Position numbers and translations under genes: made by a program
Source of the DNA: an uncultured bacterium
GTDB lineage: Bacteria > Krumholzibacteriota > Krumholzibacteriia > LZORAL124-64-63
Reading direction: 5' to 3'
Assembly (NCBI GenBank): GCA_965369705.1
Contig: CBDURF010000001.1
Span: 3,361 to 67,360, forward strand
DNA length: 64,000 nucleotides
Part shown: positions 2,266 to 64,000 of the stretch, in pieces
Layout: every line of letters begins with the position of its first letter
How positions within the stretch are numbered: the first letter of the stretch is position 1
Notes under the pieces: model-generated
The model's database searches: none
What the model was told of the DNA's origin: nothing
Seen by the model: the letters and a program-made list of their open reading frames with translations, nothing else

Positions 2266-5247
2266 CTACCAGGGCGATGACCACCGCGTCCCCAGCCCGG
2301 GTCCCAGCAGGATCGCATTGATCAGCAGGCGCTCGCTTTCGACCACCCAGCGCCGGAAGGCGGGATGCCCCGCGAACAGGATCACCTGACCGCGGCCTAC
2401 CGCTTCGCGCGTGGCGTACCCGGTATGCGCGAGACGGGCGGCGGCCTCGGGCCAGAGCAGCCCGCCCAAGTGCATCCGTTCGGTGGCCGGGAACCTGGCC
2501 GCCACGGATACCGGGGGCGCCGCGATCATGGAATCGCTGCCGCCGAACCAGACGCTGATCGTAGCGTCCAGACCGTAATTGAGCCAGAATTCCTCATCCA
2601 GATCAGCCCGGAGAATCGCGCCCTGGGGCATGAAGCGCTGCAGGCGCCGGTCGGCCGCCTGCCGGTCGGTTTCCTCGGGAGCCTTCTTGCCCGGCGGCAG
2701 GATTTCCTTGAGCCAATCGTCCAGCAAAACCGGGGATTCCGTCAGGGGGGTCCCTTGCTCGAATCCTGCCGCGAAGGGCAGGGCGCCCGGTCCCAGGAGT
2801 GGGGCTACGTCATAGGGGGAATTGCGAACGGGCTTGGGTTTCTTCTCCCCGTCCTCCTTGGACGGGGGTGGGTCCACCCGCAGCCCGGTCGCCACCGGAC
2901 GGCCCGCGGTCTGGGCCTCGACCGCGCCGATACTCCAGACCGGCGGTGGAAATTCGGCCAACGCCTGGCCCCGGAAGCGGGCCTTGGTCAAACCCGTTTC
3001 CTGATCCGCCAGCATGCGGGCCCCGCCGTCGATGCCGATGGCCGTGCCGCCCGCTTCGATCCAGCGGCGCAAACGGTCGACTCCGCCGGCGCCCAGGACC
3101 TGACGGTACATGTCCGGACCGCCGAACACGCCGGGAAAGACCAGGACGTTGTACCGGGAAAGATCGGTGCTGCCGAAACGGCCCACGTCAAGGCTGCTGA
3201 ACCGCAGGTCGAGTTCCTGGTCCAGGAGGTGCCAGATCGCACCGTATTGGGTGGGAGAGACAGGCATGCCCGTCAGGACGCCGATCCGCGGGGCCACCAG
3301 GACCGGATATTCGCCGCCACCCATATAGGGACCGTCTTCCGCCCGCGACGTCGTCACCGGCACCAGAGCGACCCCGTGCGCGGCGGCGAGGCGGTTCAGC
3401 ACGGCGGTGAGGTCTTCCAGGTTGCCTTCCCGGCGGACCACCAGGGCGCCCCGCCGGAAAGCGAGCCCGGCGATGGTGAAGGGTTTTCGGGCGACCCGCA
3501 CCGTGACTCCGGCCTGGAGCAGACTCGCCAGCATCCGGGGCGCATGGTCGGGATCACCGTCGATGATCACTGAACTGTAGGGTTCGGCAAGGACCGTCAC
3601 GGCCACGGGCTCGGTCGGGGTCCAGGCCTGCCAGTCGCCACGCGGAACCCCCCGGCTCCAATAGGCCGGGATACCCCTCAACAGGGGCAGGGACCAGGCG
3701 GTGGTTTCGTAGAGGCGGCTACCCTTGCCCTTTTCCAGGTATTCCCTTTCATCCTGGAAGAATACGGCGTTCATGGGGACGTGGGGATCCAGGATCACCC
3801 GGGCCAGGAATCCCGCGGGCTGGTCCAGGCGCACCAGGAGGGTGCCCTCAGGCAGGTCCACCCCTGATTCCTCGCCGGTGCGGGCGTCGGTGAGTTTGTT
3901 GCCTTTGCTTGTTTCACCACGCAGGACCTCGACTTCCAGACCCTGGTCCCGCAACAGGGCCGCGAAAGGTTCAAGGCGTACCGGGTGACGAGAGTCCGGT
4001 GGAAAAACCCAGGCCCTGACCTGGCCGTTCCTCCCGTTTTCCACCGCCTGGGAACGCGCGGCGATCTGATCGGACAGAACCTCGGCCGAACTGTGGGCGA
4101 GCGAGGTCAGATTGGCCATCGACGAGGTGGTCTGGTGCTCGATGGCCTGGGCGAAGGTCCGCACCGTTCCGCTCCGCTTGCGCACGAGCGTGCCGGTTGT
4201 GCGGGACATCTCGTAAAGAATCCCGATGGCGCCGTGGTAGGAAGCCCAGGACGAACCGTACCCGGGGAAGAACTCCTCGTTCCACTCCCCGGTGAAGTAG
4301 GGATAGCCGCGCCCGTCCAGGGCCCGGGCCTGATCGTCGGAGAAGGGTAGCTCCCACTTGCGGGCGTTGGGCGGCAGATGGGGATTGAAGGGATGCCGGG
4401 GCGGCGGAAACAGATAGGTGGCGTTGGCCCCCATCTCATGGCTGTCCACCAGCAGTTGGGGCAGCCAGGAGGCAATCTCACGGGACCTGGCGCTTTCGGG
4501 CTGGTTCATGGTGAACCAGTCCCGGTTCATGTCGAACAGATAGTGGTTTCCGCGCCCCCAGGGCCAGACCGCCCGGTGGGAAAGATCGTCCTGGTCGGGA
4601 TTGGCCGAGCGGTGGGCGAAGGACAGGATCTGGGCCAGGTAGCGCGCCCGCCCGTCCGGGTTTTCGCAGGGATCGATGAGCACCAGCAGCCTGTCCCGCA
4701 GGCTTCGTGAGACCTCATCCTCCCCGGCGACAAGCACGTAGGCCAAGGCGGCGGCGGCGTCGGTGCTGCTCAGTTCGTCGCCGTGGATTCCGTAGGCCAT
4801 CCAGGCCACCGCCTTGGTGTTGCCCAAATCCTCGGCCGAGGTCTTATCTGATTGCCGGGGGTCCAGAAGCGTGACGTGACGCTGCTTGAACGCGTCCAGA
4901 TCGGCGATGGTCGCCTCGTCGGACACGGCCAGGATCACCACGGGCCGGCCTTCATGGCTGCGGCCGTATTCCATGAGGCGGGCCCGGGGCGAAGCGTCGG
5001 CCAGGGCTTGGTAAAAGGCCAGGACCTCCTCCGGCCGCAGGGGACGCTGTCCCGGTTCCACGCCTGTCACCCCGACCTGGGTCGGAAGGTCGGGATCAAA
5101 AACGGCGTTCGGAAAAAGCTCTTCGAGTGCGATGGCTTTCACCCCGGCGTTGAGACCGGCGGCTGCCGCGGACGAGATGAACAGGGAGCTTAAAAGCAGG
5201 GCGGCAAAAACGCCGGCCAGCAGGACTGGAACTTGAAACCTGAACAT
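2266..5247 (-). CDS. secreted M14-family zinc carboxypeptidase with long C-terminal region (993 aa)
   Basis: Signal peptide, then M14 motifs HGDE...NPDG...DSHEMG. Shine-Dalgarno (SD) GGAG 8 nt before the ATG at 5247. Confidence 0.75.
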   Translation of the reverse strand: MFRFQVPVLLAGVFAALLLSSLFISSAAAAGLNAGVKAIALEELFPNAVFDPDLPTQVGVTGVEPGQRPLRPEEVLAFYQALADASPRARLMEYGRSHEGRPVVILAVSDEATIADLDAFKQRHVTLLDPRQSDKTSAEDLGNTKAVAWMAYGIHGDELSSTDAAAALAYVLVAGEDEVSRSLRDRLLVLIDPCENPDGRARYLAQILSFAHRSANPDQDDLSHRAVWPWGRGNHYLFDMNRDWFTMNQPESARSREIASWLPQLLVDSHEMGANATYLFPPPRHPFNPHLPPNARKWELPFSDDQARALDGRGYPYFTGEWNEEFFPGYGSSWASYHGAIGILYEMSRTTGTLVRKRSGTVRTFAQAIEHQTTSSMANLTSLAHSSAEVLSDQIAARSQAVENGRNGQVRAWVFPPDSRHPVRLEPFAALLRDQGLEVEVLRGETSKGNKLTDARTGEESGVDLPEGTLLVRLDQPAGFLARVILDPHVPMNAVFFQDEREYLEKGKGSRLYETTAWSLPLLRGIPAYWSRGVPRGDWQAWTPTEPVAVTVLAEPYSSVIIDGDPDHAPRMLASLLQAGVTVRVARKPFTIAGLAFRRGALVVRREGNLEDLTAVLNRLAAAHGVALVPVTTSRAEDGPYMGGGEYPVLVAPRIGVLTGMPVSPTQYGAIWHLLDQELDLRFSSLDVGRFGSTDLSRYNVLVFPGVFGGPDMYRQVLGAGGVDRLRRWIEAGGTAIGIDGGARMLADQETGLTKARFRGQALAEFPPPVWSIGAVEAQTAGRPVATGLRVDPPPSKEDGEKKPKPVRNSPYDVAPLLGPGALPFAAGFEQGTPLTESPVLLDDWLKEILPPGKKAPEETDRQAADRRLQRFMPQGAILRADLDEEFWLNYGLDATISVWFGGSDSMIAAPPVSVAARFPATERMHLGGLLWPEAAARLAHTGYATREAVGRGQVILFAGHPAFRRWVVESERLLINAILLGPGLGTRWSSPW

Positions 5248-10091: not shown

Positions 10092-10766
10092 TCATCGGAA
10101 AATCGCCTTCACCTCCCCGAAGGAACGGTCTTCGACCGCCACCTGGCCTTGGCACAGGTTGGGAGCCCCGGGCGACGGCGCACACCCGGTGCCAACCGGA
10201 TCCCGGTCGCCACCATAGGGATTGAGGGCATCGAACAGGATCCAGTCGCTCATCTCGGTGTTGAAACCGCAGGAACGGTCGTCCTCGCCTTCATGGTCGT
10301 CGTAGGAAATGGAGAACATCAACTCCAGCGCCGGGCCATCCGGACCTTCGTAGCTTCTCAACAGCTGGACGAAATCGCCCCCGTTGTTGAGGCTGAAGCC
10401 CGAGGTGGTCAAACCCATCTCCGTCTGCCACGCCACCGCTTCGGAACCATAGAAAACCGCGGTTTCACCCGGGTCCAGGACACCGGACAACCCGAGGTGG
10501 GGTTCCTCGCCCAGAATGTCCCGCAGGAAATAGCCCGCAAGGTTGATCGGCTCCGGCCCGTTGTTCAGGATTTCGATCCACTCATCGTTCTTGAAGTCGA
10601 CCGTGCCGTCGCCGTCCCAGTCGCTGGCCGGGTCGGCCAGCACCTCGTTGATGACGATGAAATCATCGACCTGGGCGACCGCAGGACCGCCCACCACCAG
10701 GAGGAGGAAAGTCCAAACCAGGGTCACCAGGGCGAGGGGAGGTTTTGTCATGAAGAGATTTTTCAT
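10092..10766 (-). CDS. secreted lamin-tail-domain (LTD) protein
   Basis: Signal peptide, then FIVINEVLADP...DEWIEILNNG...NLAGYFL, the LTD signature. Confidence 0.7.
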   Translation of the reverse strand: MKNLFMTKPPLALVTLVWTFLLLVVGGPAVAQVDDFIVINEVLADPASDWDGDGTVDFKNDEWIEILNNGPEPINLAGYFLRDILGEEPHLGLSGVLDPGETAVFYGSEAVAWQTEMGLTTSGFSLNNGGDFVQLLRSYEGPDGPALELMFSISYDDHEGEDDRSCGFNTEMSDWILFDALNPYGGDRDPVGTGCAPSPGAPNLCQGQVAVEDRSFGEVKAIFR

Positions 10767-10864: not shown

Positions 10865-11881
10865 ATGAGTTTTCGAGTAGGAGTGATCGGCGCGGGCGCC
10901 CACAGGGAGCGATATGTGCACCACGGGCTGCAGGATGTGCCCGGGATGACCGTGACCGCGCTGTGCCGCCGGAGCACGGAAGCAGGCCGGAAGATGGCCG
11001 CCCAGTACGGGGTGCGTTACCACGCGGAACCTGAAAACCTCATTCAGGATCTTGAAGTTGACGGCATAGTGATCTGCACACCGCCGTCGTCACACTTCGA
11101 AATAGCCAAGGCGGTCCTGGCGGCGGGCAAACCGCTCCTTTTGGAAAAGCCCATGACCGGCTTGCTCGGCGAGGCCGAGCATTTGGCCGAGTTGGACACC
11201 GCGGCGGCGCATCCTCTCATGGCCGCCCAGGCCCTGCGCTGGAATCCTGTGATCCTGAAAGTCCGCGAGCTATGGACCCGCCTCGGGCGTGTCCATCTGG
11301 TGAGGTTGGCCCAGCGCCTGGCTCCCACCACCCTGAAATGGCAACGGAACCTTGCCGACACCGTGGGCGGATCCGTCCTGTTGACCGGTGTTCATATCTT
11401 CGATCTGACGCGTTGGTTGACCGGAGCCGAGTTCGTGACGGTGGATTCGCGACAGCGACAAGTGTTGAATCCAGTGGTCGAAGACCTCTTCCTCGCGCAA
11501 GCCGTCCTGTCGGACGGTTGCTGGGCCAGTCTCGAAGTCAGCAAGTACACCCGATCGCGGGTGGGCTGGCTGGAGGCAGTCGGCGAAAACGGCCAACTCA
11601 TGGCGGATTACCTGGACGGGGGAATTATCCTGCGGGCGGGAACCACCGAAGAGCGGTTTGACGTTTCGGCCCGAACCCCCACCCTGCCATTGGTACTCAA
11701 GGACTGGCTTGCGGCGATCCGGGACGGATCGCCGCCTCCGGTAACGGTGCACGACGGACTGGCCACGCTGCGGGTGGCCGACGCCTGCTACCGTTCGGCT
11801 GACGCCGGGCGGAAAGTCGCCGTCCCGGGACATGGCGTTCCCGGAATCCGGGCTCGCCCCCCTGGAACTAGCCGGCCATGA
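10865..11881 (+). CDS. Gfo/Idh/MocA-family NAD(P)-dependent oxidoreductase
   Basis: VGVIGAGAH Rossmann start and EKP motif (LLLEKPMT). Confidence 0.85.
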   Translation: MSFRVGVIGAGAHRERYVHHGLQDVPGMTVTALCRRSTEAGRKMAAQYGVRYHAEPENLIQDLEVDGIVICTPPSSHFEIAKAVLAAGKPLLLEKPMTGLLGEAEHLAELDTAAAHPLMAAQALRWNPVILKVRELWTRLGRVHLVRLAQRLAPTTLKWQRNLADTVGGSVLLTGVHIFDLTRWLTGAEFVTVDSRQRQVLNPVVEDLFLAQAVLSDGCWASLEVSKYTRSRVGWLEAVGENGQLMADYLDGGIILRAGTTEERFDVSARTPTLPLVLKDWLAAIRDGSPPPVTVHDGLATLRVADACYRSADAGRKVAVPGHGVPGIRARPPGTSRP

Positions 11882-13640
11882 TCCGTTCGATCCCGCCCCG
11901 CGCGATGGGATGATATCCGCCCGCGTTGGCCGCGAAGGTCTCCCGGGCCAGCTCCTTCGTCTTCTCACCCGCGTACAACGTCGTGTACAAGGGCTTCAGG
12001 TACTTCATCCGGCCCACCTCACCCAGGAACCGGGCGGTGCGATCGAAGACCGGCTCGTACCCGCTGCCCGTGGCGATAATCAACCAGTTGCAGAGGATTT
12101 CACAGTTGCCCTGTCCGGTCAGTTCGAAATTCTCATCCAGCCAGGCACAGTCCTTCTGGGGCAAGGTGCGCGGCAGGGCCTGCAGGAAGATCTGCCAGTC
12201 CTCCGGGGACCAGACCTTGGCCTGGTCGACCTCGGGCCTCGCACCGTCGGACCAGCCCTTGGCCAAATCCTCCAGCATTTTCAAACGCGACGACGTGAAC
12301 ACGGGCGCGTTGTCGGGCAGGCCGGCCTGGTGGATCCACTCGTCGGCACGGATCTGCTCGGCGATACCCGGCAACTCGGCGTTTAGAAACTCCTCGAACT
12401 GGGCCGTGGTGATCGAGGTGAAGCTGAAGTGCTTGATGTATGTCTTGATGAAGGCGTCGAATTTCCCGCGTCCGGCGGCCTGCTCGAGCAGGGCCACGAA
12501 CAGATAGCCTTTTTCGTAGGGCACCAGCGAGTAGAACTCGTCCGGATCCGAACCCTTGCTGTCGGTTTCCAACTGGGTGAAGGGCGAGTCCATGCCGAAT
12601 GAGTTCATGGCTTCCATCAACCCGTTGCGGCCGATGGCCGATGCCAGGGACTTCGCCTCCAGGCCATCGATATTCTCCAGGATGCGCCTTTCGGCCCAGA
12701 CCGTGAACCCCTCGTTGAGCCAGAAGTCGTCCATGGTGGCGTTGGTGACCAGGTTGCCGGTCCAGCTGTGGGCCAGTTCGTGGGCCAGCACGTTGACCAA
12801 GGACCGGTCGCCGGCCAGCAGCGTCGGGGTCAGGAAGGTCAGCCGTGGATTCTCCATCCCGCCGTAGGGGAAGGAAGCGGGCATGACCAGAAAGTCGAAC
12901 CGGTCCCACAGGTAGGGACCGAACACGTCTTCAGCCGCGGTCAGCATCTTGTCAACGTCGGCGAATTCCCAGGCCGCTTTGGCCAGGGTCTCCGGCTCGG
13001 TGTATACCCGGGAGCGGGGTCCCAGATCCTGCGACACGATATTTCCCACCGCGAAGGCGAACAGGTACGGCGGAATGGATTGGGGCATCTCGAAGCTGAA
13101 ACTGCGCGTGCCGGGTAGCGAACCTTCCGCGGCCTGACCGGGAGCGGCGGCCATGACCACCGTCAGATTCTCGGGTACCGTCATCCGGGCCTTGAAGGTG
13201 AAGCGCGCCAGGGGAGAATCCTGGCAGGGGATGACGCTGCGGGCATGAATGGCCTGGCACTGGCTGAACAGGTAGGGGTGCTTGCCGCCATCGGTCTGCG
13301 CGGGCTCCAGCCACTGCAGGGCGCTGGCGGCCGGGCTGGTCGCGTAGTCGATGGTGAACGAAGCGGTGCCCTCCGGCAATTGAACCCTCAGACACGTGCC
13401 CAGAACATCGTCCTTCTCCGTCAACTCCCACTCCAGGGTGTTGCCCTTGTCGTCGGTCACGCCGTGAATCTCCAGATCCCTGGTGTCCAGGTCAAGCGAC
13501 CCGGCGGCCGGGGCCTCCAGATTGAGCGTGGCCTTTCCTTCGATGCGGCTGGTGTCGAAATTCACGTTCAGATCGAGATCCATGCTGGTGACCCGACCCT
13601 GGTCCAGGTCGCTGTAGGAATGGGGGTCGCGTCGGCTCAA
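11868..13640 (-). CDS. M1-family aminopeptidase, leukotriene-A4-hydrolase/cold-active aminopeptidase type (cytoplasmic)
   Basis: HELAHSWTGN...WLNEGFTVW (HEXXH-E) and GGMEN. The N-terminal DPHSYS motif fits this family. Start re-placed to TTG at 13640, preceded by GGAGGT with a 6-nt spacer; the ORF caller's 13763 start is a GTG with no SD. Confidence 0.85.
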   Translation of the reverse strand: MSRRDPHSYSDLDQGRVTSMDLDLNVNFDTSRIEGKATLNLEAPAAGSLDLDTRDLEIHGVTDDKGNTLEWELTEKDDVLGTCLRVQLPEGTASFTIDYATSPAASALQWLEPAQTDGGKHPYLFSQCQAIHARSVIPCQDSPLARFTFKARMTVPENLTVVMAAAPGQAAEGSLPGTRSFSFEMPQSIPPYLFAFAVGNIVSQDLGPRSRVYTEPETLAKAAWEFADVDKMLTAAEDVFGPYLWDRFDFLVMPASFPYGGMENPRLTFLTPTLLAGDRSLVNVLAHELAHSWTGNLVTNATMDDFWLNEGFTVWAERRILENIDGLEAKSLASAIGRNGLMEAMNSFGMDSPFTQLETDSKGSDPDEFYSLVPYEKGYLFVALLEQAAGRGKFDAFIKTYIKHFSFTSITTAQFEEFLNAELPGIAEQIRADEWIHQAGLPDNAPVFTSSRLKMLEDLAKGWSDGARPEVDQAKVWSPEDWQIFLQALPRTLPQKDCAWLDENFELTGQGNCEILCNWLIIATGSGYEPVFDRTARFLGEVGRMKYLKPLYTTLYAGEKTKELARETFAANAGGYHPIARGGIERIMAG

Positions 13641-13825
13641 GAGAGTACCTCCGGATGGAAGAATTCCTGCCGGGCAGGAAGAATGTCGGACTTCATCGGA
13701 CCCATTGTCGCCTGGAATGATCCACACCGCAAGGTGGAGACGGCACCACGGACTTTGTTCCACCGTTCTTCCGTGGTATTCTTATCCTTAAATTGGAACA
13801 CCTGAACCCCCGGGAGGAAGCTTCC

Positions 13826-14137
13826 ATGCGTGACGGAATGACCCGTCTGGAAACCTACACCAGCGAAATCGAGGCCGAGATCGCCAAGGGCCGGCTCGAA
13901 GCCCTCGGCGTGATGGTGGTCCTCGAAAAGGACAACTGCGGCGGCATGCGGCCCCATCTGGATCTCCAGGCCGGCGTCAAGTTGTACGTTATCGACGAAG
14001 ATCTCGACAAGGCCAGGGACATCCTGGCCTCCGGAGCGGTGGGCACCACGACTGGAACCTGGGTCTGCGGCGGATGCGGTGAGGAGATCGACGGCAGCTA
14101 CGACGCCTGCTGGAAATGCGGCCGTGACCGGGAATGA
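13826..14137 (+). CDS. small DUF2007-domain protein with C-terminal CxxC...CxxC zinc ribbon
   Basis: LETYTSEIEAEIAKGRLEALGV (DUF2007-like) plus WVCGGCGEEIDGSYDACWKCG. GGAGGA SD 7 nt before the ATG at 13826. Its stop overlaps the next gene's start (ATGA). Confidence 0.65.
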   Translation: MRDGMTRLETYTSEIEAEIAKGRLEALGVMVVLEKDNCGGMRPHLDLQAGVKLYVIDEDLDKARDILASGAVGTTTGTWVCGGCGEEIDGSYDACWKCGRDRE

Positions 14138-16206
14138 GGTATACAAGAGTCTTTGCCCTCGTGTGCCTGTTGATGGCGGCGGTCGCGGGATCGCCCACCG
14201 GGGCGCTCGCCCGAACCCCTCTTGAACCCAGTCCTCCCAAATGTCGCCTGCCCGTCGAATGGCTGCCCGGCGGCCCCGGGGAGGCGCTCGGTCCCGCTGA
14301 CGAGGAATTCCCTCCTCCGCCCAGCGGCGACCGCGGCTACGACGTTCTGAGCTATGATCTGGACATCCAACTGTTTCCCGCCGACTGGTCGCTCACCGGA
14401 CGGGTGGACATCGGTCTGACCGCCCTGGCCGAGGGCCTGACCCGGGTCCGGCTCGACCTGGTGGATGATCTGATATGCGACGGCGTTACCTTCCGGGACC
14501 GGGAGGCTGCCTTCATCCACCAGGGCGACAGTCTGGTGGTGACTTTCGATGTTCCCCTGGCGACCGCCCCGGCCGAAACCCTGATCATCCGCTGGCACGG
14601 CCGTCCTCCACGGCACGGCAATTTCCTCAGCGGCCTCATGTTCCGCACCCATGAAAACGGCACGCCCCACGACCCCACCGACGACATGCCCATGATCGCC
14701 AACCAGAACCAGCCCTGGTCCGCCCATTCGTGGTGGCCCTGCAAGGACCACCCCTCGGACAAGGCCCTTTCCAGCCTGACGGTCACGGTGCCCGAGCCCC
14801 TTCAGGTCGTCTCCAACGGCGTCCTGCTTTGGGAGGATTCCCCCGGCCTTGGCCTGCGACGGTTCGCCTGGCGCGAGGAATACCCCATCGCCACCTACCT
14901 GATCTCCGTGGCGGCCACCAACTACTCCTCCTGGAGCGAGGATTGCGTCGTGACCGACGGTGATCCGGTGCATCTGGACTTCCACGTGTTTCCCCAGGAC
15001 AGGGCCGCCGCCGAGATCGACCTGGCCCCCACCTGCGACATGATGGATTTCATGACCATGTTGGTCGGCCCTTATCCCTTCACCGGCGAGAAATACGCGC
15101 AGGCCGAAATCAAATGGTACGGTTCGATGGAGCATCAGACGGCGACCAGTCTCAGCCAGATCGTCTTCACCGGCAACCGCCGATTCGAACTCGTGGTGAT
15201 CCACGAACTGGCCCACATGTGGTTCGGCGACAGCCTGACCCCGGCGGTATGGGCGGACATCTGGCTCAACGAGGGCTTCGCCCGCTACTGCGAAGCCCTG
15301 TGGATCGAACACGCCTACGGCGTTCCGGCATACAAGGAGTTCATGCGCCAGATCGGCCCCGTGGCGCACCCCGACTTTTTCGTGAACGACGGTGTTCTCA
15401 TCGACCCGGATCCCATCCTGCCCAACATCCTGATCTACGACAAGGGAGCCTGGGTCCTGCATATGTTGAGAATGCTGATCGGGGATGACGCCTTCTTCGG
15501 ATTCCTGGCGGACTACGCCGTGGCTCCGGACCTGGTTCTAAACAGTGTGACCCTGGTGGACATGATCGGCTTCGCGGAAAAGGCGGCCGGCCGCGACCTG
15601 GACGGTTTTTTCAGCCCCTGGGTGGAGACGTCCGCGGTTCCGGTCGTGAGCTCGTCGGTTTCAACAACAGACGCCAGGCCGGGCGACGGTCGGGTCCAGG
15701 TTCGTTTCATCCAGCACCAGAGCCCCCTGTTCGAGCTGGCGGTGCCGGTCGCGATCCACACCGCCTGTGGAATCCAGCAGGAACTGGCCGTCTTGTCCAA
15801 GGGCTCCGAGAGCTTCACGTGGCCGACCGCTTGCCGGGTGGACTCGGTGTCCGTGGATCCCGACGGCATGGTCCTGATGAAATCCGTGGCGGCCCCCCCA
15901 CCCGTCCTGCAGGTGGTCGGACCTTGGCCCAACCCCGTTCCCTCTGTCGGCGCGGAGTTCAGAATCTACCTGACATCAGAACGTGAAGTTACTGTAAAAA
16001 CGTACGATGCGCGTGGTCGACTCGTAACTGAACAACATCTGGGACTACTGGCGGCCACCGGGCCCGCAGACGATCCGGATTCCATACCCCACGTCTGGAC
16101 CTGGTCCGCCGCCACCGGTACGGCCCGAACATCCGCTGGGGTCTATTGGCTGGATTTCGACGCCGCCGGCACGCGGACCGTCAAGAAACTCACCCTGCTC
16201 CACTGA
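14134..16206 (+). CDS. secreted M1-family metallopeptidase with C-terminal T9SS-type sorting domain
   Basis: Signal peptide; HELAHMWFGD...WLNEGFARY (HEXXH+E). C-terminus PNPVPSVGAEFRIYL...VYWLDFDAAGTRTVKKLTLLH matches the T9SS C-terminal sorting-domain pattern. Confidence 0.85.
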   Translation: MRYTRVFALVCLLMAAVAGSPTGALARTPLEPSPPKCRLPVEWLPGGPGEALGPADEEFPPPPSGDRGYDVLSYDLDIQLFPADWSLTGRVDIGLTALAEGLTRVRLDLVDDLICDGVTFRDREAAFIHQGDSLVVTFDVPLATAPAETLIIRWHGRPPRHGNFLSGLMFRTHENGTPHDPTDDMPMIANQNQPWSAHSWWPCKDHPSDKALSSLTVTVPEPLQVVSNGVLLWEDSPGLGLRRFAWREEYPIATYLISVAATNYSSWSEDCVVTDGDPVHLDFHVFPQDRAAAEIDLAPTCDMMDFMTMLVGPYPFTGEKYAQAEIKWYGSMEHQTATSLSQIVFTGNRRFELVVIHELAHMWFGDSLTPAVWADIWLNEGFARYCEALWIEHAYGVPAYKEFMRQIGPVAHPDFFVNDGVLIDPDPILPNILIYDKGAWVLHMLRMLIGDDAFFGFLADYAVAPDLVLNSVTLVDMIGFAEKAAGRDLDGFFSPWVETSAVPVVSSSVSTTDARPGDGRVQVRFIQHQSPLFELAVPVAIHTACGIQQELAVLSKGSESFTWPTACRVDSVSVDPDGMVLMKSVAAPPPVLQVVGPWPNPVPSVGAEFRIYLTSEREVTVKTYDARGRLVTEQHLGLLAATGPADDPDSIPHVWTWSAATGTARTSAGVYWLDFDAAGTRTVKKLTLLH

Positions 16207-16217
16207 TGCTATCGATC

Positions 16218-18914
16218 CTATCGAATCAGGGTGATCTTACCGGACGCCCTCAAGGAACCCGCCTCAAGCAGCCCGATATAAAGGCCGGCGGCGACCTGCC
16301 GGCCTCCGTTGTCCCGGCCGGACCAACGGACCTCATGCGGACCCGCCGGATAGCTCGTTCGGTCGACGAGAATCTTCACTACGCGTCCGCTCACGTCGTG
16401 GACCACCAGGCGCACCGATTCGGCCTGAGGTAGTTGGAAGGAAAACACCGCGCCGGCGCCGCCTTGCCCGGCGGTGTCTACGGTCAAGGCCAGGGACCCG
16501 CCCCCTGCGCCGGGACCCGGATTATCCACTGCCGAAACACTGGACAATAGTGCGAACTGGTCCCCGGGATAACCGGAAAGGTCGGGCTCGGAACCCAGGG
16601 ACCCCGTGATATCCGTTACCGGAGGCAACCACTGATTGCTCACCTGGCCGTCGGATTCGAGCAGGAACGCAACCACCTTGACGCCGGTGACCTGCCCCAC
16701 GGTCAGATCGAGGTCGGCCAAGGGCAGATAAATCTCGAAACCCGACACGGCGGTAGCTGCCTGGTCCACGGAAGTATCGGTCACACCGCCGGTGTTGCTG
16801 TTGTCCAGGGCGACCCTCATCTCGTTCGGGTTGACGCCCCCCGTCAGCAAACCGTTGCCGCTGTTCACGGTGCCCTGACCACGGTAGGTCTTGACCGCCC
16901 CGCCGCCGGTGACCAGAACGTACTGATCGATGTAGATCGTTCCCGCCCAGGCGTTGGCGAAAACCATCTGGTCGGGTTCAAAGCCGCTATCCAGCCGTAA
17001 TCCCGTCAGGAGGTCGGGGCCGGCCGGCGGGGGCGACAGGTTGGAAAGATCCAGAACGTTCTGACCCCCCGAACGGGTGTCGAACAGGATCGCCAGCCCC
17101 GTCCCATCGGTGGCCAGGTTGCCGGTAAGTCCCAGAAAGAGCGAATCTCCGGCGGTCCGGAAAAACATCTGGTCGAGTTCAGACACGTTGTCGCCCAGAT
17201 GGGTCGGACTGGCCTGGGTCGCCAGCAGGCCGGTGGGTCCGAATTGGGCGGGAAGGTCGCGGCCGTCCACCAGGGCGACCGGCGGAATGGGTGGCGTCAC
17301 ATCCACGTCAAGCAGGGTGTAACCATAGGGCGCCAGCAGGATGGAATAGGCGTCCTTGTTCTGATCGGTGAGATTCGGATGGATGGTCCCGGTGAGCAGG
17401 CCCATCACGGTGGTGGAACCGCCGGGAATGCTGAAAGCCCCCAGGTCCAGCTCAACCACCTGGGACGACCCGCTCACGTTGATGACAACCAGGATCTGCT
17501 GATCGTCGTGGCCGCGCACGAAGGACCAGACGACCCCACCGCTTGCCGGGACAGGACAATAACCGCCCCGCCGCAGGGCGATGTTGCCCCGGCGCGCGGC
17601 AATCAATTCGCGGTATGCCTCCAGCAGAGAGCCCGGCACCCCGTCCTGCTCCTCCACGCTGCGGCCGTCGTGGTCCTGGGAGATCCGTCCGGCAAACACC
17701 GTAGGATTCAAAGCGTCGTAATTGGTCATCGGGGGACCGGCCACGGCGTTCCACTTGAACGGCTCGCGCATGGGGATGTCGGCCGCATCGCCGGGATAGG
17801 ACGTGTTCTTGGCGCCGCGCATGCCGATCTCGTCGCCATGGTAGATGACCGGCGGGAAAGGTTGGGTCAGCAGAACCGCGGCGGCGGCCTTGCCCTTGGC
17901 GAAATCGTCACCGATCGACGTGGCCAGACGGTCCACGTCGTGGTCGCCAATGGTCGTCATCAGGGCTCCGTCAACACTGGAGGCGCCCAGGGCCGCGACG
18001 GCGGCCGCCATCTGGCTGTACAGGGGTTCGGCGTATTCCCAGCGCAGGGCGTCGCGGGCCCCGAACTCGAAGGGTTTCGTGAAGGCCGCGTCCATTCCTG
18101 CCAGCAGATCAACCCCCTGACTGCCCCAGTCGGCCTGCTCAGCGAAAACGAACACATCCGGATTCACCCCGCGCAGGGCGTCCCGCCAGGGAGCCCAGAA
18201 AGTGTCGATGTGGTAGCCCCAACCGTCGGGGCCGTAGGGGTAGGTCGCCCAGACGTGGTCCAACCGGTAGCCGTCCAGTCCGTCGGCGAAATCACCGTCG
18301 CCGTTCGGATCGAGCCAGTAACTCGCCCAATCGGTCACCAGATCGACCGGATGGGAATTCCGCAGGTCCCAGTGGATGAAACCCACCTCATCTCCGTTCC
18401 AGGTGTTGTAGACCGAGCCCTGGTAGTCGGTGTTCTGGTGGTCGTAGAAGGCCAGCCAGGAGTCGAAGGTGCTGTTCGGGTGACCGTACGCGTCCTGGAA
18501 GTAGATGGTGTCCTGGCTGATCCCGTAGGCGACGAAATCCACGAAGACCTTGATGCCCCGCAGGTGGGCAGCCTCCAAAAACGCGGTAAGATCATCCTCG
18601 GTCCCGAACCAGGGATTCAACTGGTCGGCCGTACCGTGCTGATAACCGTGGTAGGCGGGCGAGGGAAAGATGGGATTCATCCAGACCGCGGTGACCCCCA
18701 GCGTTTCCAGGTAGTCCAGGGAGTCGATCATGCCGCCGAAATCACCGAAGCGGTAGGTGTCGTTGTCCGAGTCGCGCCAGCAGATGGGCATGAAATGATA
18801 GAACACCTCATCGGCGATGTCCTGTTGAGCGGCGGATTGAGCGACCGGCAAGAGGGTGACAGCCAGAAATATCAGCAGAGCGAGGCGATACAGGGACCTG
18901 CCGGAAATAGTCAT
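16218..18914 (-). CDS. secreted GH13-family alpha-amylase with C-terminal T9SS-type sorting domain
   Basis: GH13 regions GYRLDHVWA, FVFAEQAD, IGDHD; HGDEIG. C-terminus ...VHDVSGRVVKILVD...GLYIGLLEAGSLRASGKITLIR. Start set at the ATG at 18914 (signal peptide MTISGRSLYRLALLIFLAVTLLPVAQSAAQ); the caller's GTG at 18971 adds 19 non-signal residues. Confidence 0.82.
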   Translation of the reverse strand: MTISGRSLYRLALLIFLAVTLLPVAQSAAQQDIADEVFYHFMPICWRDSDNDTYRFGDFGGMIDSLDYLETLGVTAVWMNPIFPSPAYHGYQHGTADQLNPWFGTEDDLTAFLEAAHLRGIKVFVDFVAYGISQDTIYFQDAYGHPNSTFDSWLAFYDHQNTDYQGSVYNTWNGDEVGFIHWDLRNSHPVDLVTDWASYWLDPNGDGDFADGLDGYRLDHVWATYPYGPDGWGYHIDTFWAPWRDALRGVNPDVFVFAEQADWGSQGVDLLAGMDAAFTKPFEFGARDALRWEYAEPLYSQMAAAVAALGASSVDGALMTTIGDHDVDRLATSIGDDFAKGKAAAAVLLTQPFPPVIYHGDEIGMRGAKNTSYPGDAADIPMREPFKWNAVAGPPMTNYDALNPTVFAGRISQDHDGRSVEEQDGVPGSLLEAYRELIAARRGNIALRRGGYCPVPASGGVVWSFVRGHDDQQILVVINVSGSSQVVELDLGAFSIPGGSTTVMGLLTGTIHPNLTDQNKDAYSILLAPYGYTLLDVDVTPPIPPVALVDGRDLPAQFGPTGLLATQASPTHLGDNVSELDQMFFRTAGDSLFLGLTGNLATDGTGLAILFDTRSGGQNVLDLSNLSPPPAGPDLLTGLRLDSGFEPDQMVFANAWAGTIYIDQYVLVTGGGAVKTYRGQGTVNSGNGLLTGGVNPNEMRVALDNSNTGGVTDTSVDQAATAVSGFEIYLPLADLDLTVGQVTGVKVVAFLLESDGQVSNQWLPPVTDITGSLGSEPDLSGYPGDQFALLSSVSAVDNPGPGAGGGSLALTVDTAGQGGAGAVFSFQLPQAESVRLVVHDVSGRVVKILVDRTSYPAGPHEVRWSGRDNGGRQVAAGLYIGLLEAGSLRASGKITLIR

Positions 18915-19007
18915 CCCGAGAGAAATGATTGAGGAAACCAAGCTGACCTGCCTGTTGAGGATGTCTTCCACGGGTGATGCGGATCCCGGTGCACCTGACC
19001 TGATGCA

Positions 19008-28031: not shown

Positions 28032-29444
28032 TCAATGTCCCGTCACCTTCCAGACGTCGAGCACCACGACGAAGGTCATGAACAAAAGCAGGATGATCAG
28101 GCCCACCTGCGTGGCGATGGCCTGCAGCTTTTCGGGCACCGGTTTTCCGCCCCTGGCCACCTCGAGCAGCAGGAACAGCACGTGTCCCCCATCCAGGACC
28201 GGAATGGGCATCAGGTTCAACAGGAACAGGTTGATGGAGAAGAAGGCGACGAAGTACATCAGGTGCGAAAAACTCCAGCTCAACATCTCCCCGGCGGCCT
28301 GGCCGATCCGCAGGGGCCCACCCACGGCGTCCAGGCCGAGCCTGCGGAAAACGAAATCCCGCAGCACGCTCACGGTGACCTGGATGGTCCCGATGGTCCG
28401 TTGGTACCCGAGGACCACGGCCGTGCCGAAACCGACCTTCTCGTAGGCGAAGAAGGGTTCCATGAAGATGCGGCCCTTCATCACGCCCGGTTCGATTTCC
28501 TTGAGTTCCGGCACCACCGCACCGCTCATCCGCAGTCCGTCCCGGATCCAGACGATCTCCAAGGACTGTTCCGGATGGTCGTTGATGATACGGGCGATAT
28601 TGCTGAATGAGGTCACGGTCTGGCCCATCACGGACTGGACCACGTCTCCCGGACGAAGACCGAGCATCGCGGCGGGACCGTTCCTTCTCACCAGGCCGAC
28701 CGTCGTGTTCCAGACTTCCAGCCCCAGCGACCAGTAACCCGCTCCCTCATCGAACACCGGTTGCAGTTCGAGGGTCACCTTCCCATCTTCTCGCCTGACT
28801 TCCACCGCCGAGGGAGGCACCGTCCCTGTCTTCCGCAGTTCCACCGGGACCAGGGCCTCTTCGACCTCTCCCCAGTTTTCCATGGCTCGGCCGTTGACCT
28901 TCAGGATCTTGTCTCCGACCTGGAAACCCGCGACCTCGGCCGGAGAATCGACCCGGACATCACCCACGGTGGTGAAGGGAATGTTCTGCAGGCCGTTGCT
29001 CAGGACAAGCCCCGTATAGAGCACGAACGCCAGCACCAGGTTGAACAGGGGCCCGGCGATGAAAACGAACAACCGCTGCCACGCGGGCCGGGAGTTCAGA
29101 AGCCGGTGGGGCGGAATGTGGTCATCTATGCCCGCGGCCTCGGCGTTGCCTTCCTCGGTGCCCAGGGGATACTTCCTTTCCTCCCAGGTCCCGGTGTCCT
29201 GGATCTCCTCCATGACCCCCTCGCCCGCCATCTTGACGTAGCCGCCGAACGGGATGGCCGACAGGACGTATTCGGTCTCCCCCCAACGCTTGCGGAGAAA
29301 CTTGGGGCCGATACCGATGGAGAAGGTCTTCACGTAGATCCCGAACAGCTTGCAAAACAGGAAATGCCCGAGTTCGTGAACGATGACCACGAGTCCCAGG
29401 GTCAGCAGGAAGGCGAATATCGTGGTGATGATGTTGCTGGACAA
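28032..29444 (-). CDS. rseP: RIP (site-2) metalloprotease RseP
   Basis: HELGHFLF HExxH in TM1, PDZ region, LDGG motif. Confidence 0.9.
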   Translation of the reverse strand: MSSNIITTIFAFLLTLGLVVIVHELGHFLFCKLFGIYVKTFSIGIGPKFLRKRWGETEYVLSAIPFGGYVKMAGEGVMEEIQDTGTWEERKYPLGTEEGNAEAAGIDDHIPPHRLLNSRPAWQRLFVFIAGPLFNLVLAFVLYTGLVLSNGLQNIPFTTVGDVRVDSPAEVAGFQVGDKILKVNGRAMENWGEVEEALVPVELRKTGTVPPSAVEVRREDGKVTLELQPVFDEGAGYWSLGLEVWNTTVGLVRRNGPAAMLGLRPGDVVQSVMGQTVTSFSNIARIINDHPEQSLEIVWIRDGLRMSGAVVPELKEIEPGVMKGRIFMEPFFAYEKVGFGTAVVLGYQRTIGTIQVTVSVLRDFVFRRLGLDAVGGPLRIGQAAGEMLSWSFSHLMYFVAFFSINLFLLNLMPIPVLDGGHVLFLLLEVARGGKPVPEKLQAIATQVGLIILLLFMTFVVVLDVWKVTGH

Positions 29445-62821: not shown

Positions 62822-64000
62822 TTACCTGATCAGGGAGATTTTTTTAACCGTCAGCTGGGCCTCGGGTGTCCGTGCCTGCACCAGATACGTCCCTGACGGC
62901 ATGGAACGCCCAAGCCGATCGCGCCCGTCCCACACAGCGGAATGAAAGCCTCCGTCGGTGAGAGTTCCCCGCCAGAGCATCTGGATCCGCCGTCCCCTCA
63001 GGTCCAGCACCTCGAGTGTGACCTGGGTGGCGGCGACGCTCATCACCGTCACTGAAATCTGAGGATTGAACGGATTGGGACTGGCCGCCAGTTCCAGGAT
63101 CGAGGTGGTCACAGCGGGGACTGTTCGGTCAACTACCGACACGGCCGGGCCGCGAATGGCGACGATCCCGCCCAGACCTGCGTCAACGTCGATGAAGCCG
63201 ATATTCGGTTCAGGGATGGCAAAGTAGCTGGGCAGGCTGGTTTCGTCGCCCCAGATTTCAATGGACCCATCGGCATGCAACCCGACCACGGTGTAATACC
63301 CCAAAGCGTCGATGGCCACCAGGTCATGATTGCCCTCGGTGGGGGTCTGGAAGTAGTCGCCCCAGGCAACGATGGTGCCGTCGGCCAGCAGCCCGATCCC
63401 GAAGCCGTTGCCCGCGGCCACGTCCACATAGCCGGTGTTCGGTTCGGGTACGTCCAGTTCGTTCCGAAGATTCGAACCCCAGGCCACGATGGAACTGTCG
63501 GCTTTCAGTCCCAGACAAAAATCATTTCCCGCCGAGATGGCGATGAACCCCGTATTGGGTTCAGGCACCGTTTGATCATGGATCCCCACGTCTCCGATGA
63601 CATCGATCGAGCCGCCTGCGCGCAATCCCAGGAAGTGCTGCCGCCCAGCGGCCACGGCCACGTAGTCCGAATTCGGGAAAGGTTCGAGGGAGTAGCCGAA
63701 AGGATCTTTCCAGGCCACGATGGTGCCGTCGTTCTTCAGCCCCGCAGCACCGTCGTGGGTGGTGGCCACCTGCACGAAACGGGTGTTGGGTTCGGGAACG
63801 TCCGGCAGGGTTCCCCAGGTGGAGATGGAGCCGTTGCTGTCCAGGACCAGCCCGCTGTAGTTGGAATAGGAGACATCCACGGGGTCTGCAGTTGGGGGCC
63901 GGACCCCGCATTGCCCCGAGCCATTACTCCCCCATCCGGCAACCGTGCCGTCGGTGCGCAGACCCAGGCTGTGGAAGTAGCCCGCGGCCATATCAATATA
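62822..64000 (-). CDS. secreted RCC1-like beta-propeller repeat protein with C-terminal T9SS-type sorting domain, 5'-partial
   Basis: Repeated GxxHxLGLxxDGxVxAWG units. C-terminus PNPFNPQISVTV...GTYLVQARTPEAQLTVKKISLIR. Frame is open to the window end. Confidence 0.75.
   Translation of the reverse strand, partial: YIDMAAGYFHSLGLRTDGTVAGWGSNGSGQCGVRPPTADPVDVSYSNYSGLVLDSNGSISTWGTLPDVPEPNTRFVQVATTHDGAAGLKNDGTIVAWKDPFGYSLEPFPNSDYVAVAAGRQHFLGLRAGGSIDVIGDVGIHDQTVPEPNTGFIAISAGNDFCLGLKADSSIVAWGSNLRNELDVPEPNTGYVDVAAGNGFGIGLLADGTIVAWGDYFQTPTEGNHDLVAIDALGYYTVVGLHADGSIEIWGDETSLPSYFAIPEPNIGFIDVDAGLGGIVAIRGPAVSVVDRTVPAVTTSILELAASPNPFNPQISVTVMSVAATQVTLEVLDLRGRRIQMLWRGTLTDGGFHSAVWDGRDRLGRSMPSGTYLVQARTPEAQLTVKKISLIR

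Follow-up and report, generated by a model that had tools for sequence, protein, structure and literature searches.

In the staphopain-staphostatin, SpeB-Spi, and Bacteroides fragilis Bfp-Bfi systems, a small inhibitor gene is co-transcribed with the gene of a secreted protease, and the staphostatins are cytoplasmic proteins (PMC2873492). We analyzed a three-gene region in a 64,000-nucleotide stretch of DNA (contig CBDURF010000001.1; the whole stretch is referred to below as the window) from a member of Candidatus Krumholzibacteriota. In this region a small gene encoding a cytoplasmic DUF2007 and zinc-ribbon protein overlaps the start of a gene for an exported M1 metallopeptidase, and a second M1 gene, whose product resembles leukotriene A4 hydrolase (LTA4H), lies upstream on the opposite strand. 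The features on which the comparison rests are the following.

11868 to 13640, reverse strand: divergent cytoplasmic LTA4H-like M1 aminopeptidase, 590 amino acids (aa), TTG start (Pfam M1_N, M1, and Leuk-A4-hydro_C)
13755 to 13782, forward strand: promoter-like element of the small gene, composed of TTGTTC, a 16-nucleotide (nt) spacer, and the extended -10 sequence TGgTATTCT at 13774 to 13782 (proposed from a comparison of the regions upstream of orthologs)
13812 to 13817, forward strand: small-gene Shine-Dalgarno (SD) sequence, GGAGGA, 8 nt ahead of the ATG
13826 to 14137, forward strand: small cytoplasmic protein, 103 aa, DUF2007 plus a C4 zinc ribbon (Pfam, homologs, alignment, dN/dS, AlphaFold model)
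13931 to 13963, forward strand: loop between beta2 and beta3, DNCGGMRPHLD, residues 36 to 46 (invariant or nearly so in an alignment of 25 homologs; low confidence in the model)
14060 to 14119, forward strand: zinc ribbon W-x-C-x2-C-x10-C-W-x-C, residues 79 to 98 (invariant residues, RanBP2-like spacing)
14134 to 14137, forward strand: ATGA overlap of the small-gene stop and the M1 peptidase start (read from the sequence)
14134 to 16206, forward strand: exported M1 metallopeptidase, 690 aa (Pfam M1_N and M1, motifs)

As in the protease-inhibitor operons, the small gene is contiguous with the gene of a secreted protease, with a conserved ATGA overlap, and the two genes are probably co-transcribed. 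The known inhibitors, however, have lipocalin- or propeptide-like folds, none of which was found among the Foldseek hits of the small protein; the gene order and the partners in those operons are specific to cysteine proteases, unlike those of the M1 locus; and the pairing turned out not to be obligatory here in either direction, the genes downstream of this one small protein encoding hydrolases with four unrelated mechanisms. The other system that bears comparison is that of the PII proteins, such as GlnK of the glnK-amtB operon. The small protein resembles them in being a predicted beta-alpha-beta-loop-beta-alpha protein with a conserved flexible loop at the position of the T-loop, in probably being co-transcribed with a nutrient-acquisition gene, as glnK is, and in a weak Foldseek likeness to GlnK. 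It differs from them in giving no P-II match in Pfam or NCBIfam, and so does not count as a PII protein, in a fold match with E values of only 0.03 to 0.3 and a root mean square deviation of about 16 Å over the whole chain, and in its additional zinc ribbon. Moreover, unlike in glnK-amtB, the co-encoded M1 peptidase is fully exported and offers no cytoplasmic face to bind.

Coupling of the small gene and the M1 gene

The small open reading frame (ORF) is a real gene under purifying selection. Its dN/dS ratio was 0.09 to 0.21 against 10 orthologs, and its GC content at third codon positions (GC3) was 0.81, similar to that of the adjoining genes. A search of 5.8 billion proteins returned 77 homologs with 43 to 91% identity, the full-length ones nearly all of 99 to 107 aa, and a profile search extended the set of conserved homologs to 173 clusters at 90% identity, of which those listed were nearly all about 100 to 107 aa long and the best 120 matches listed all belonged to the same family. 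An antisense ORF of 169 aa (13637 to 14146, reverse strand) spans the whole small gene; because of its GC3 of 0.63, we regard it as spurious.

With each GTDB species represented by a single genome, a scan found 24 loci that matched most or all of the small protein, 23 of them near full length and one (L030) cut at a contig end. Most were labeled Candidatus Krumholzibacteriota or Krumholzibacteriia, while a few carried generic or apparently mis-assigned labels of metagenome-assembled genomes (MAGs). Each of the 24 came from a different species genome, that is, there was one small gene per genome in the scan. The same scan yielded one weaker match in Planctomycetota (L031) and many matches in other phyla that were confined to the zinc ribbon.

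We then compared 47 distinct loci, defined as distinct small-protein sequences with DNA context. An M1 ortholog lay directly downstream of the small gene in 32 of them. In 22 of these 32 coupled loci a 4-nt NTGA overlap, in which an ATG, TTG, or GTG start is set on the TGA stop, was kept, even at small-protein identities as low as 44%, and the remaining 10 had short overlaps or gaps. Nothing was inserted between the two genes in any coupled locus, even though M1 is followed by amylase in some and by UvrD in others. Because of this direct adjacency, the frequent retention of the overlap, and the lack of insertions within the pair, the small gene and the M1 gene are, judged from the sequence comparison, a genuine ancestral and translationally coupled operon that goes beyond neighborhood synteny. 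The overlap of the small-gene stop with the M1 start at 14134, which the earlier note had described, is thus present in the window as ATGA and belongs to a pair that turned out to be syntenic and coupled across most of the phylum.

The conserved expression signals precede the small gene only. When divergent orthologous loci were compared, the pattern TTG...N16-17...TGnTAnnnT recurred about 35 to 45 nt 5' of the small-gene ATG, and a G/A-rich SD-like motif (AAGGA, GGAGG, GGGAG, or similar) was found at the same distance from it in nearly all family loci with upstream sequence. A sigma-70 consensus scan of 13500 to 16500 scored no promoter, the promoter-like element included, and gave no meaningful terminator. 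The peptidase start has no well-spaced SD, and the bases preceding it encode the C terminus of the small protein. Ribosomes that end the small ORF would probably then translate the M1 peptidase, and the promoter and strong SD of the small gene would set the output of both genes.

The pairing is nevertheless not obligatory, in either direction. Orthologs of the M1 peptidase lacking the small ORF occur in the DOLZORAL124_64_63 lineage (L050) and on a 3.8-Mb contig (L052), a divergent gatCAB operon standing in its place; in the DOLZORAL MAG the small gene is located elsewhere, convergent with a nucleoside phosphorylase (PNP) gene, and its product has the degenerate loop ENPSGVIPPLDL (L027, L080). 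Conversely, in one clade of the ortholog tree the small gene keeps its motif intact and M1 is not adjacent. The gene found co-directionally downstream in this clade encodes an S41 lipoprotein peptidase (L015, L073, and L069, in the last with a secreted ORF of 352 aa in between), an amidase-signature lipoprotein (L082 and probably L077), or a secreted C69 peptidase with its catalytic Cys right behind the signal peptide (L134); other members have a malQ-MFS-phosphatase block as the neighbor (L020, L133, L135, and the P0214 contig). Paralogy as the origin of the uncoupled copies was rejected, since no two family-level loci of the species-level scan shared a genome. The recurrence of exported peptide or amide hydrolases downstream suggests a functional theme wider than one enzyme.

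The secreted protein of about 352 aa that separates the small gene from the S41 gene is conserved in one sub-lineage (L069, 1167 to 2225; L074, 1633 to 2092) and gave no match in Pfam or NCBIfam.

The small protein and its family

The DUF2007 model of Pfam (PF09413) matched residues 7 to 69 of the small protein with 36.5 bits against a cutoff of 25.7, which places the protein in this family. The zinc-ribbon model DUF7577 (PF24463) matched residues 77 to 101 with 23.0 bits, below its cutoff of 28, and several orthologs have precomputed PF24463 matches. Sequence and Pfam thus bear out the earlier note in its description of a 103-aa ORF joining DUF2007 to a zinc ribbon behind a strong GGAGGA SD. 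In the alignment of 25 homologs, W79, C81, C84, C95, W96, and C98 were invariant, and the Cys spacing W-x-C-x2-C-x10-C-x2-C fits the RanBP2-type consensus. A sequence profile search of the PDB returned only weak matches to RanBP2-type fingers (RBM10/RBM5), with E values of 0.023 or higher. The loop proved less constant once more divergent coupled orthologs were added: only D36, G40, M41, and P43 were still invariant, and some lineages that remain M1-coupled (L021, L023, L051) have Ser or Ala in place of Cys38 and Gln in place of His44.

An AlphaFold model computed with the family alignment (pLDDT 73.6) had the order beta1-alpha1-beta2-loop-beta3-alpha2-linker-zinc ribbon, the loop (residues 36 to 50) being of low confidence. 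In a Foldseek search of this model against the PDB nothing was found at an E value of 0.001 or lower. The best matches were to the generic alpha/beta modules of EscJ/PrgK, to PII/GlnK, to the DUF2007 structure 2HFV, and, for the tail, to RanBP2-type fingers, that to 2HFV being weak (TM 0.50 to 0.53, E value of 0.11, at the query-model pLDDT given above).

A profile of both domains found 5,356 relatives at an E value of 0.001 or lower, and 505 at 1e-10 or lower, among 1.84 billion representative proteins. Many of the relatives stand alone, at about 100 aa, and have a similar loop, [DN][DN]xGGMxP; in many others, of 200 to 300 aa, the two-domain module is followed by hydrophobic, probably membrane-spanning segments. 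The sole annotation of DUF2007 is "putative prokaryotic signal transducing protein," and a literature search found no functional study of DUF2007 by title or abstract. With the DUF2007 plus DUF7577 family at large the small protein shares a DUF2007 score above the Pfam threshold, the two-domain module, and a GG(M/L)xP-type loop like that of the stand-alone relatives, whereas the near-invariant DNCGGMRPHLD loop and the coupling to an exported M1 peptidase set the Krumholzibacteriota subfamily apart from the rest of the DUF2007 family. The small protein is therefore a lineage-specific member of a large uncharacterized family.

The zinc-ribbon motif, W-x-C-x2-C-G-E-x3-[ED]-x2-F-D-x-C-W-x-C-G, is in addition a mobile module, found at the N or C termini of many unrelated proteins (L032 to L049) from Planctomycetota, Elusimicrobiota, Verrucomicrobiota, and others. 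Some of these proteins have tails that are hydrophobic and probably span the membrane. The motif and a DUF2007-like segment are joined, in either order, in L036 and L040.

Candidate roles of the small protein

In keeping with the DUF2007 annotation, a role in signaling or regulation through ligand sensing is the most likely one for the small protein. The conserved flexible loop would serve as the sensing or interaction element and the zinc ribbon as a module binding nucleic acid or protein, and the likely job of the whole would be to tie the production of exported peptide-scavenging hydrolases to the nutritional state of the cell. Our preferred reading, to which we give somewhat less than even weight, is that the small gene is a PII-like sensing and regulatory leader cistron for exported peptide hydrolases. 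Several observations weigh against it. The PII-like resemblance is weak, every Foldseek E value being above 0.001. An Rfam scan of 13400 to 14400 gave no match at an E value of 1 or lower and so no riboswitch, leader RNA, or conserved RNA element. Few independent rearrangements underlie the hydrolase theme, most of them in one clade, and peptidases are common in this organism, the window alone having four. Three peptidase-type neighbors in about seven independent contexts would arise by chance with a probability of a few percent, by a rough binomial estimate. Further neighbors are unrelated to such a theme (malQ, NmrA-DUF2867, DUF5916/CBM9, convergent MscS or beta-lactamase-family genes, and PNP), relatives from outside the phylum have neighbors of several kinds (a CA_like protein, an Fe-S assembly protein, YkuD, patatin plus M61, and a divergent beta-lactamase-family gene), and overlapping genes in compact operons need not have a functional link.

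The main alternative to the preferred explanation is that there is no specific link at all, the small protein being a general cytoplasmic factor of the phylum whose well-expressed gene stands upstream of the peptidase by chance, and the overlap an ordinary operon compaction kept by descent. The whole block from the Lamin Tail Domain (LTD) gene to TamB is largely syntenic, which makes adjacency alone weak evidence; each of the two genes is also found without the other beside it, the small gene then being intact; and the DUF2007 and zinc-ribbon module is widespread (5,356 representative clusters), in varied architectures and contexts. Yet the LTA4H-like gene has in places become separated from the small gene by insertions, and the gene after M1 is variable, while no insertion separates the small gene from M1 in any coupled locus; the 4-nt overlap has been retained across deep divergence; and, after uncoupling, an exported hydrolase is again found downstream in three separate contexts. 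We consider the absence of any link possible, if on balance doubtful. Should the link be functional, the locus would offer a clue to how uncultured protein-degrading bacteria of the Fibrobacterota-Chlorobiota-Bacteroidota (FCB) superphylum control or service their secreted peptidases; should it not be, the locus is simply a well-conserved operon.

A broader proposal takes DUF2007 and zinc-ribbon proteins to be unrecognized cytoplasmic partners of exported peptide hydrolases in FCB bacteria, acting either as a nutrient sensor that gates translation or export of these hydrolases or, before export, as a factor that works on their precursors. We consider it unlikely. If it were true, it would provide the first function for a domain family with thousands of members. 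For this large and uncharacterized family, the phylum gives an unusually clean genetic handle, with one copy per genome in the scan, coupled in most lineages to an exported aminopeptidase and, where uncoupled, repeatedly lying ahead of other exported hydrolases. The locus is a modest lead on an uncharacterized family rather than a new system.

The earlier note had proposed that the small protein could be a dedicated chaperone, an inhibitor (immunity protein), or a regulator of the M1 peptidase. In either of the first two roles, the cytoplasmic protein would neutralize or hold the M1 precursor before Sec export in the manner of a staphostatin. Its tight co-translation with M1 would suit such a role, the SpeB-Spi, staphopain-staphostatin, and B. 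fragilis Bfp-Bfi pairs are precedents (PMC2873492), and the conserved loop, which contains Cys and His, could in principle reach the catalytic zinc. The comparison across loci did not bear out a partner dedicated to this peptidase, while a regulator is still compatible with it. M1 orthologs exist without an upstream small gene (L050, L052), and the MAG of one of them has an unlinked, loop-degenerate copy (L027, L080); the small gene occurs away from M1; and M1-coupled L021, L023, and L051 have other residues in place of both Cys38 and His44 of the loop. One inhibitor or chaperone for four hydrolase mechanisms is moreover implausible, the small gene having as its neighbors S41 (Ser-Lys), C69 (N-terminal Cys), and amidase-signature (Ser-cisSer-Lys) enzymes besides the metallopeptidase M1. 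The top Foldseek matches of the small protein included neither a lipocalin-like staphostatin nor a protease-propeptide fold. To our knowledge, M1 aminopeptidases act on free N termini only and have no known need for immunity, which also counts against an inhibitor. We therefore judge a dedicated chaperone or inhibitor improbable, and the idea can be set aside.

Two related ideas were rejected. A cysteine switch, in which Cys38 and His44 of the loop would act as ligands of the peptidase zinc like a matrix metalloproteinase prodomain, is ruled out by the Ser/Ala and Gln replacements in coupled orthologs and by the partners that are not metalloenzymes. A prodomain with a ferredoxin fold, like that of I9 or of the M14 propeptide, had no counterpart among the top Foldseek hits.

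That the small protein handles metal, as a zinc buffer, metallochaperone, or redox sensor supplying or sensing zinc for the two neighboring M1 enzymes, is very improbable: its four invariant Cys, the Cys38, His44, Asp36, and Asp46 of the loop in most members, and the two flanking zinc peptidases would fit such a task, but folding and metal uptake of the exported enzyme take place outside the cytoplasm, neither the Cys nor the His of the loop is conserved, and the partners in the uncoupled lineages are not metalloenzymes.

The exported peptidase and the surrounding genes

The 690-aa protein belongs to family M1 by its Pfam matches to Peptidase_M1 and Peptidase_M1_N (85.5 and 42.2 bits, respectively). 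The zinc site HELAH (residues 357 to 361; 15202 to 15216) is intact together with E380, the GXMEN motif is replaced by the variant GSMEH (15121 to 15135), and WLNEGF is present at 15262 to 15279. Its orthologs are 47 to 81% identical and, among the 120 matches listed, all came from Krumholzibacteria or from unclassified "bacterium" MAGs where the source was named. Two further features concern its export.

14134 to 14211, forward strand: predicted Sec signal peptide, residues 1 to 26 (by inspection)
15919 to 16203, forward strand: C-terminal beta-sandwich resembling a type IX secretion system (T9SS) type A sorting domain, residues 596 to 690 (sequence profiles and structure match)

By inspection, the N terminus, MRYTRVFALVCLLMAAVAGSPTGALA, has a positive N-region, a hydrophobic core, and an ALA-like cleavage site, and the ortholog N termini are equivalent. 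The C-terminal domain (CTD), i.e., the last 95 residues, scored just below the cutoffs of the curated models, with 20.3 against 23 bits for TIGR04183 and 20.2 to 20.9 against 27 bits for Por_Secre_tail (PF18962). However, in an alignment of 20 CTDs (those of 18 M1 orthologs, the window amylase, and the window RCC1-repeat protein), 15 matched TIGR04183 at an E value of 0.01 or lower, the best at 1.9e-8. The CTD model (pLDDT 89) matched best the structure of Porphyromonas gingivalis PorU (6za2; 25% identity, E value of 2.3e-4, TM 0.66) and also that of the Tannerella forsythia mirolase CTD (8qb1; TM 0.66 to 0.70). These matches support a T9SS-type sorting domain at the C terminus, accepted at the domain level. 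Thus, of the claim that the M1 peptidase is targeted to the T9SS, the presence of the domain is supported, by the ortholog matches and the PorU-like model, while the score of the protein's own CTD stays below the cutoffs. Like the T9SS type A cargo of the FCB superphylum, the M1 proteins combine a predicted signal peptide with a beta-sandwich at the C terminus, for which most orthologs give a TIGR04183 match and whose model resembles the CTDs of PorU and mirolase; unlike that cargo, the window protein itself falls just under both curated cutoffs. No T9SS machinery (PorK/L/M/N, Sov/SprA, PorU/V) was found among the window ORFs scanned, the genome of the organism not having been searched for it, and a literature search returned nothing linking Krumholzibacteria to type IX secretion.

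Two other window proteins, a GH13 alpha-amylase (16218 to 18971, reverse strand) and an RCC1-repeat protein at the window end (62822 to 64000, reverse strand), also have FlgD_ig/T9SS-like CTDs. Their final residues (...KITLIR and ...KKISLIR, respectively) resemble the ...KKLTLLH of M1, the common pattern being ...K(K/I)(L/I)(T/S)L(L/I)(H/R), and such similar tails suggest one sorting signal common to several exported proteins.

A truncated, 61-aa version of the small protein, without the DUF2007 core, was found in two loci (L089, 4977 to 5162; L090, 3723 to 3908), convergent with the gene of a 1,175-aa Peptidase_C25 protein (gingipain family) with a propeptide and a T9SS type A CTD that scores above threshold. 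The C25 peptidase of L089 was rejected as a PorU candidate, with 61 bits against a PorU cutoff of 420.

The divergent LTA4H-like gene was found as the earlier note had placed it, on the opposite strand with 185 nt between it and the small-gene ATG, and with GGAGG 7 nt before its TTG start. The start is supported by the orthologs, which measure 589 to 591 aa where the gene call is full length (L001/L002, L003, L050, L051), the call in L005 being 603 aa. The product has no signal peptide, and its 541 bits in TIGR02411 are below the equivalog cutoff of 761.7; it is LTA4H-like, not a proven equivalog. The gene is the divergent neighbor of the small gene in most loci, while in some lineages (L003, L005, L014, L016, L026) the genes of a PAS histidine kinase and a DUF3369/HD-GYP response regulator are inserted between the two. 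This two-component pair is oriented like the LTA4H gene (L003, 1676 to 5651; L005, 1798 to 5683).

The largely syntenic block comprises, in order, LTD, a GFO/IDH/MocA oxidoreductase, LTA4H, the small gene, M1, UvrD, and TamB, with the amylase between M1 and UvrD in the clade of the window. Its LTD member in the window (10092 to 10766, reverse strand) is a secreted protein of 224 aa, part of the block throughout the phylum. Farther out, a 993-aa ORF (2266 to 5247, reverse strand) combines an N-terminal hydrophobic, signal-like segment with Peptidase_M14 (zinc carboxypeptidase). This protein, the two M1 enzymes, and an M50 peptidase of the RseP type (28032 to 29444) make the window peptidase rich, with four in 64 kb.

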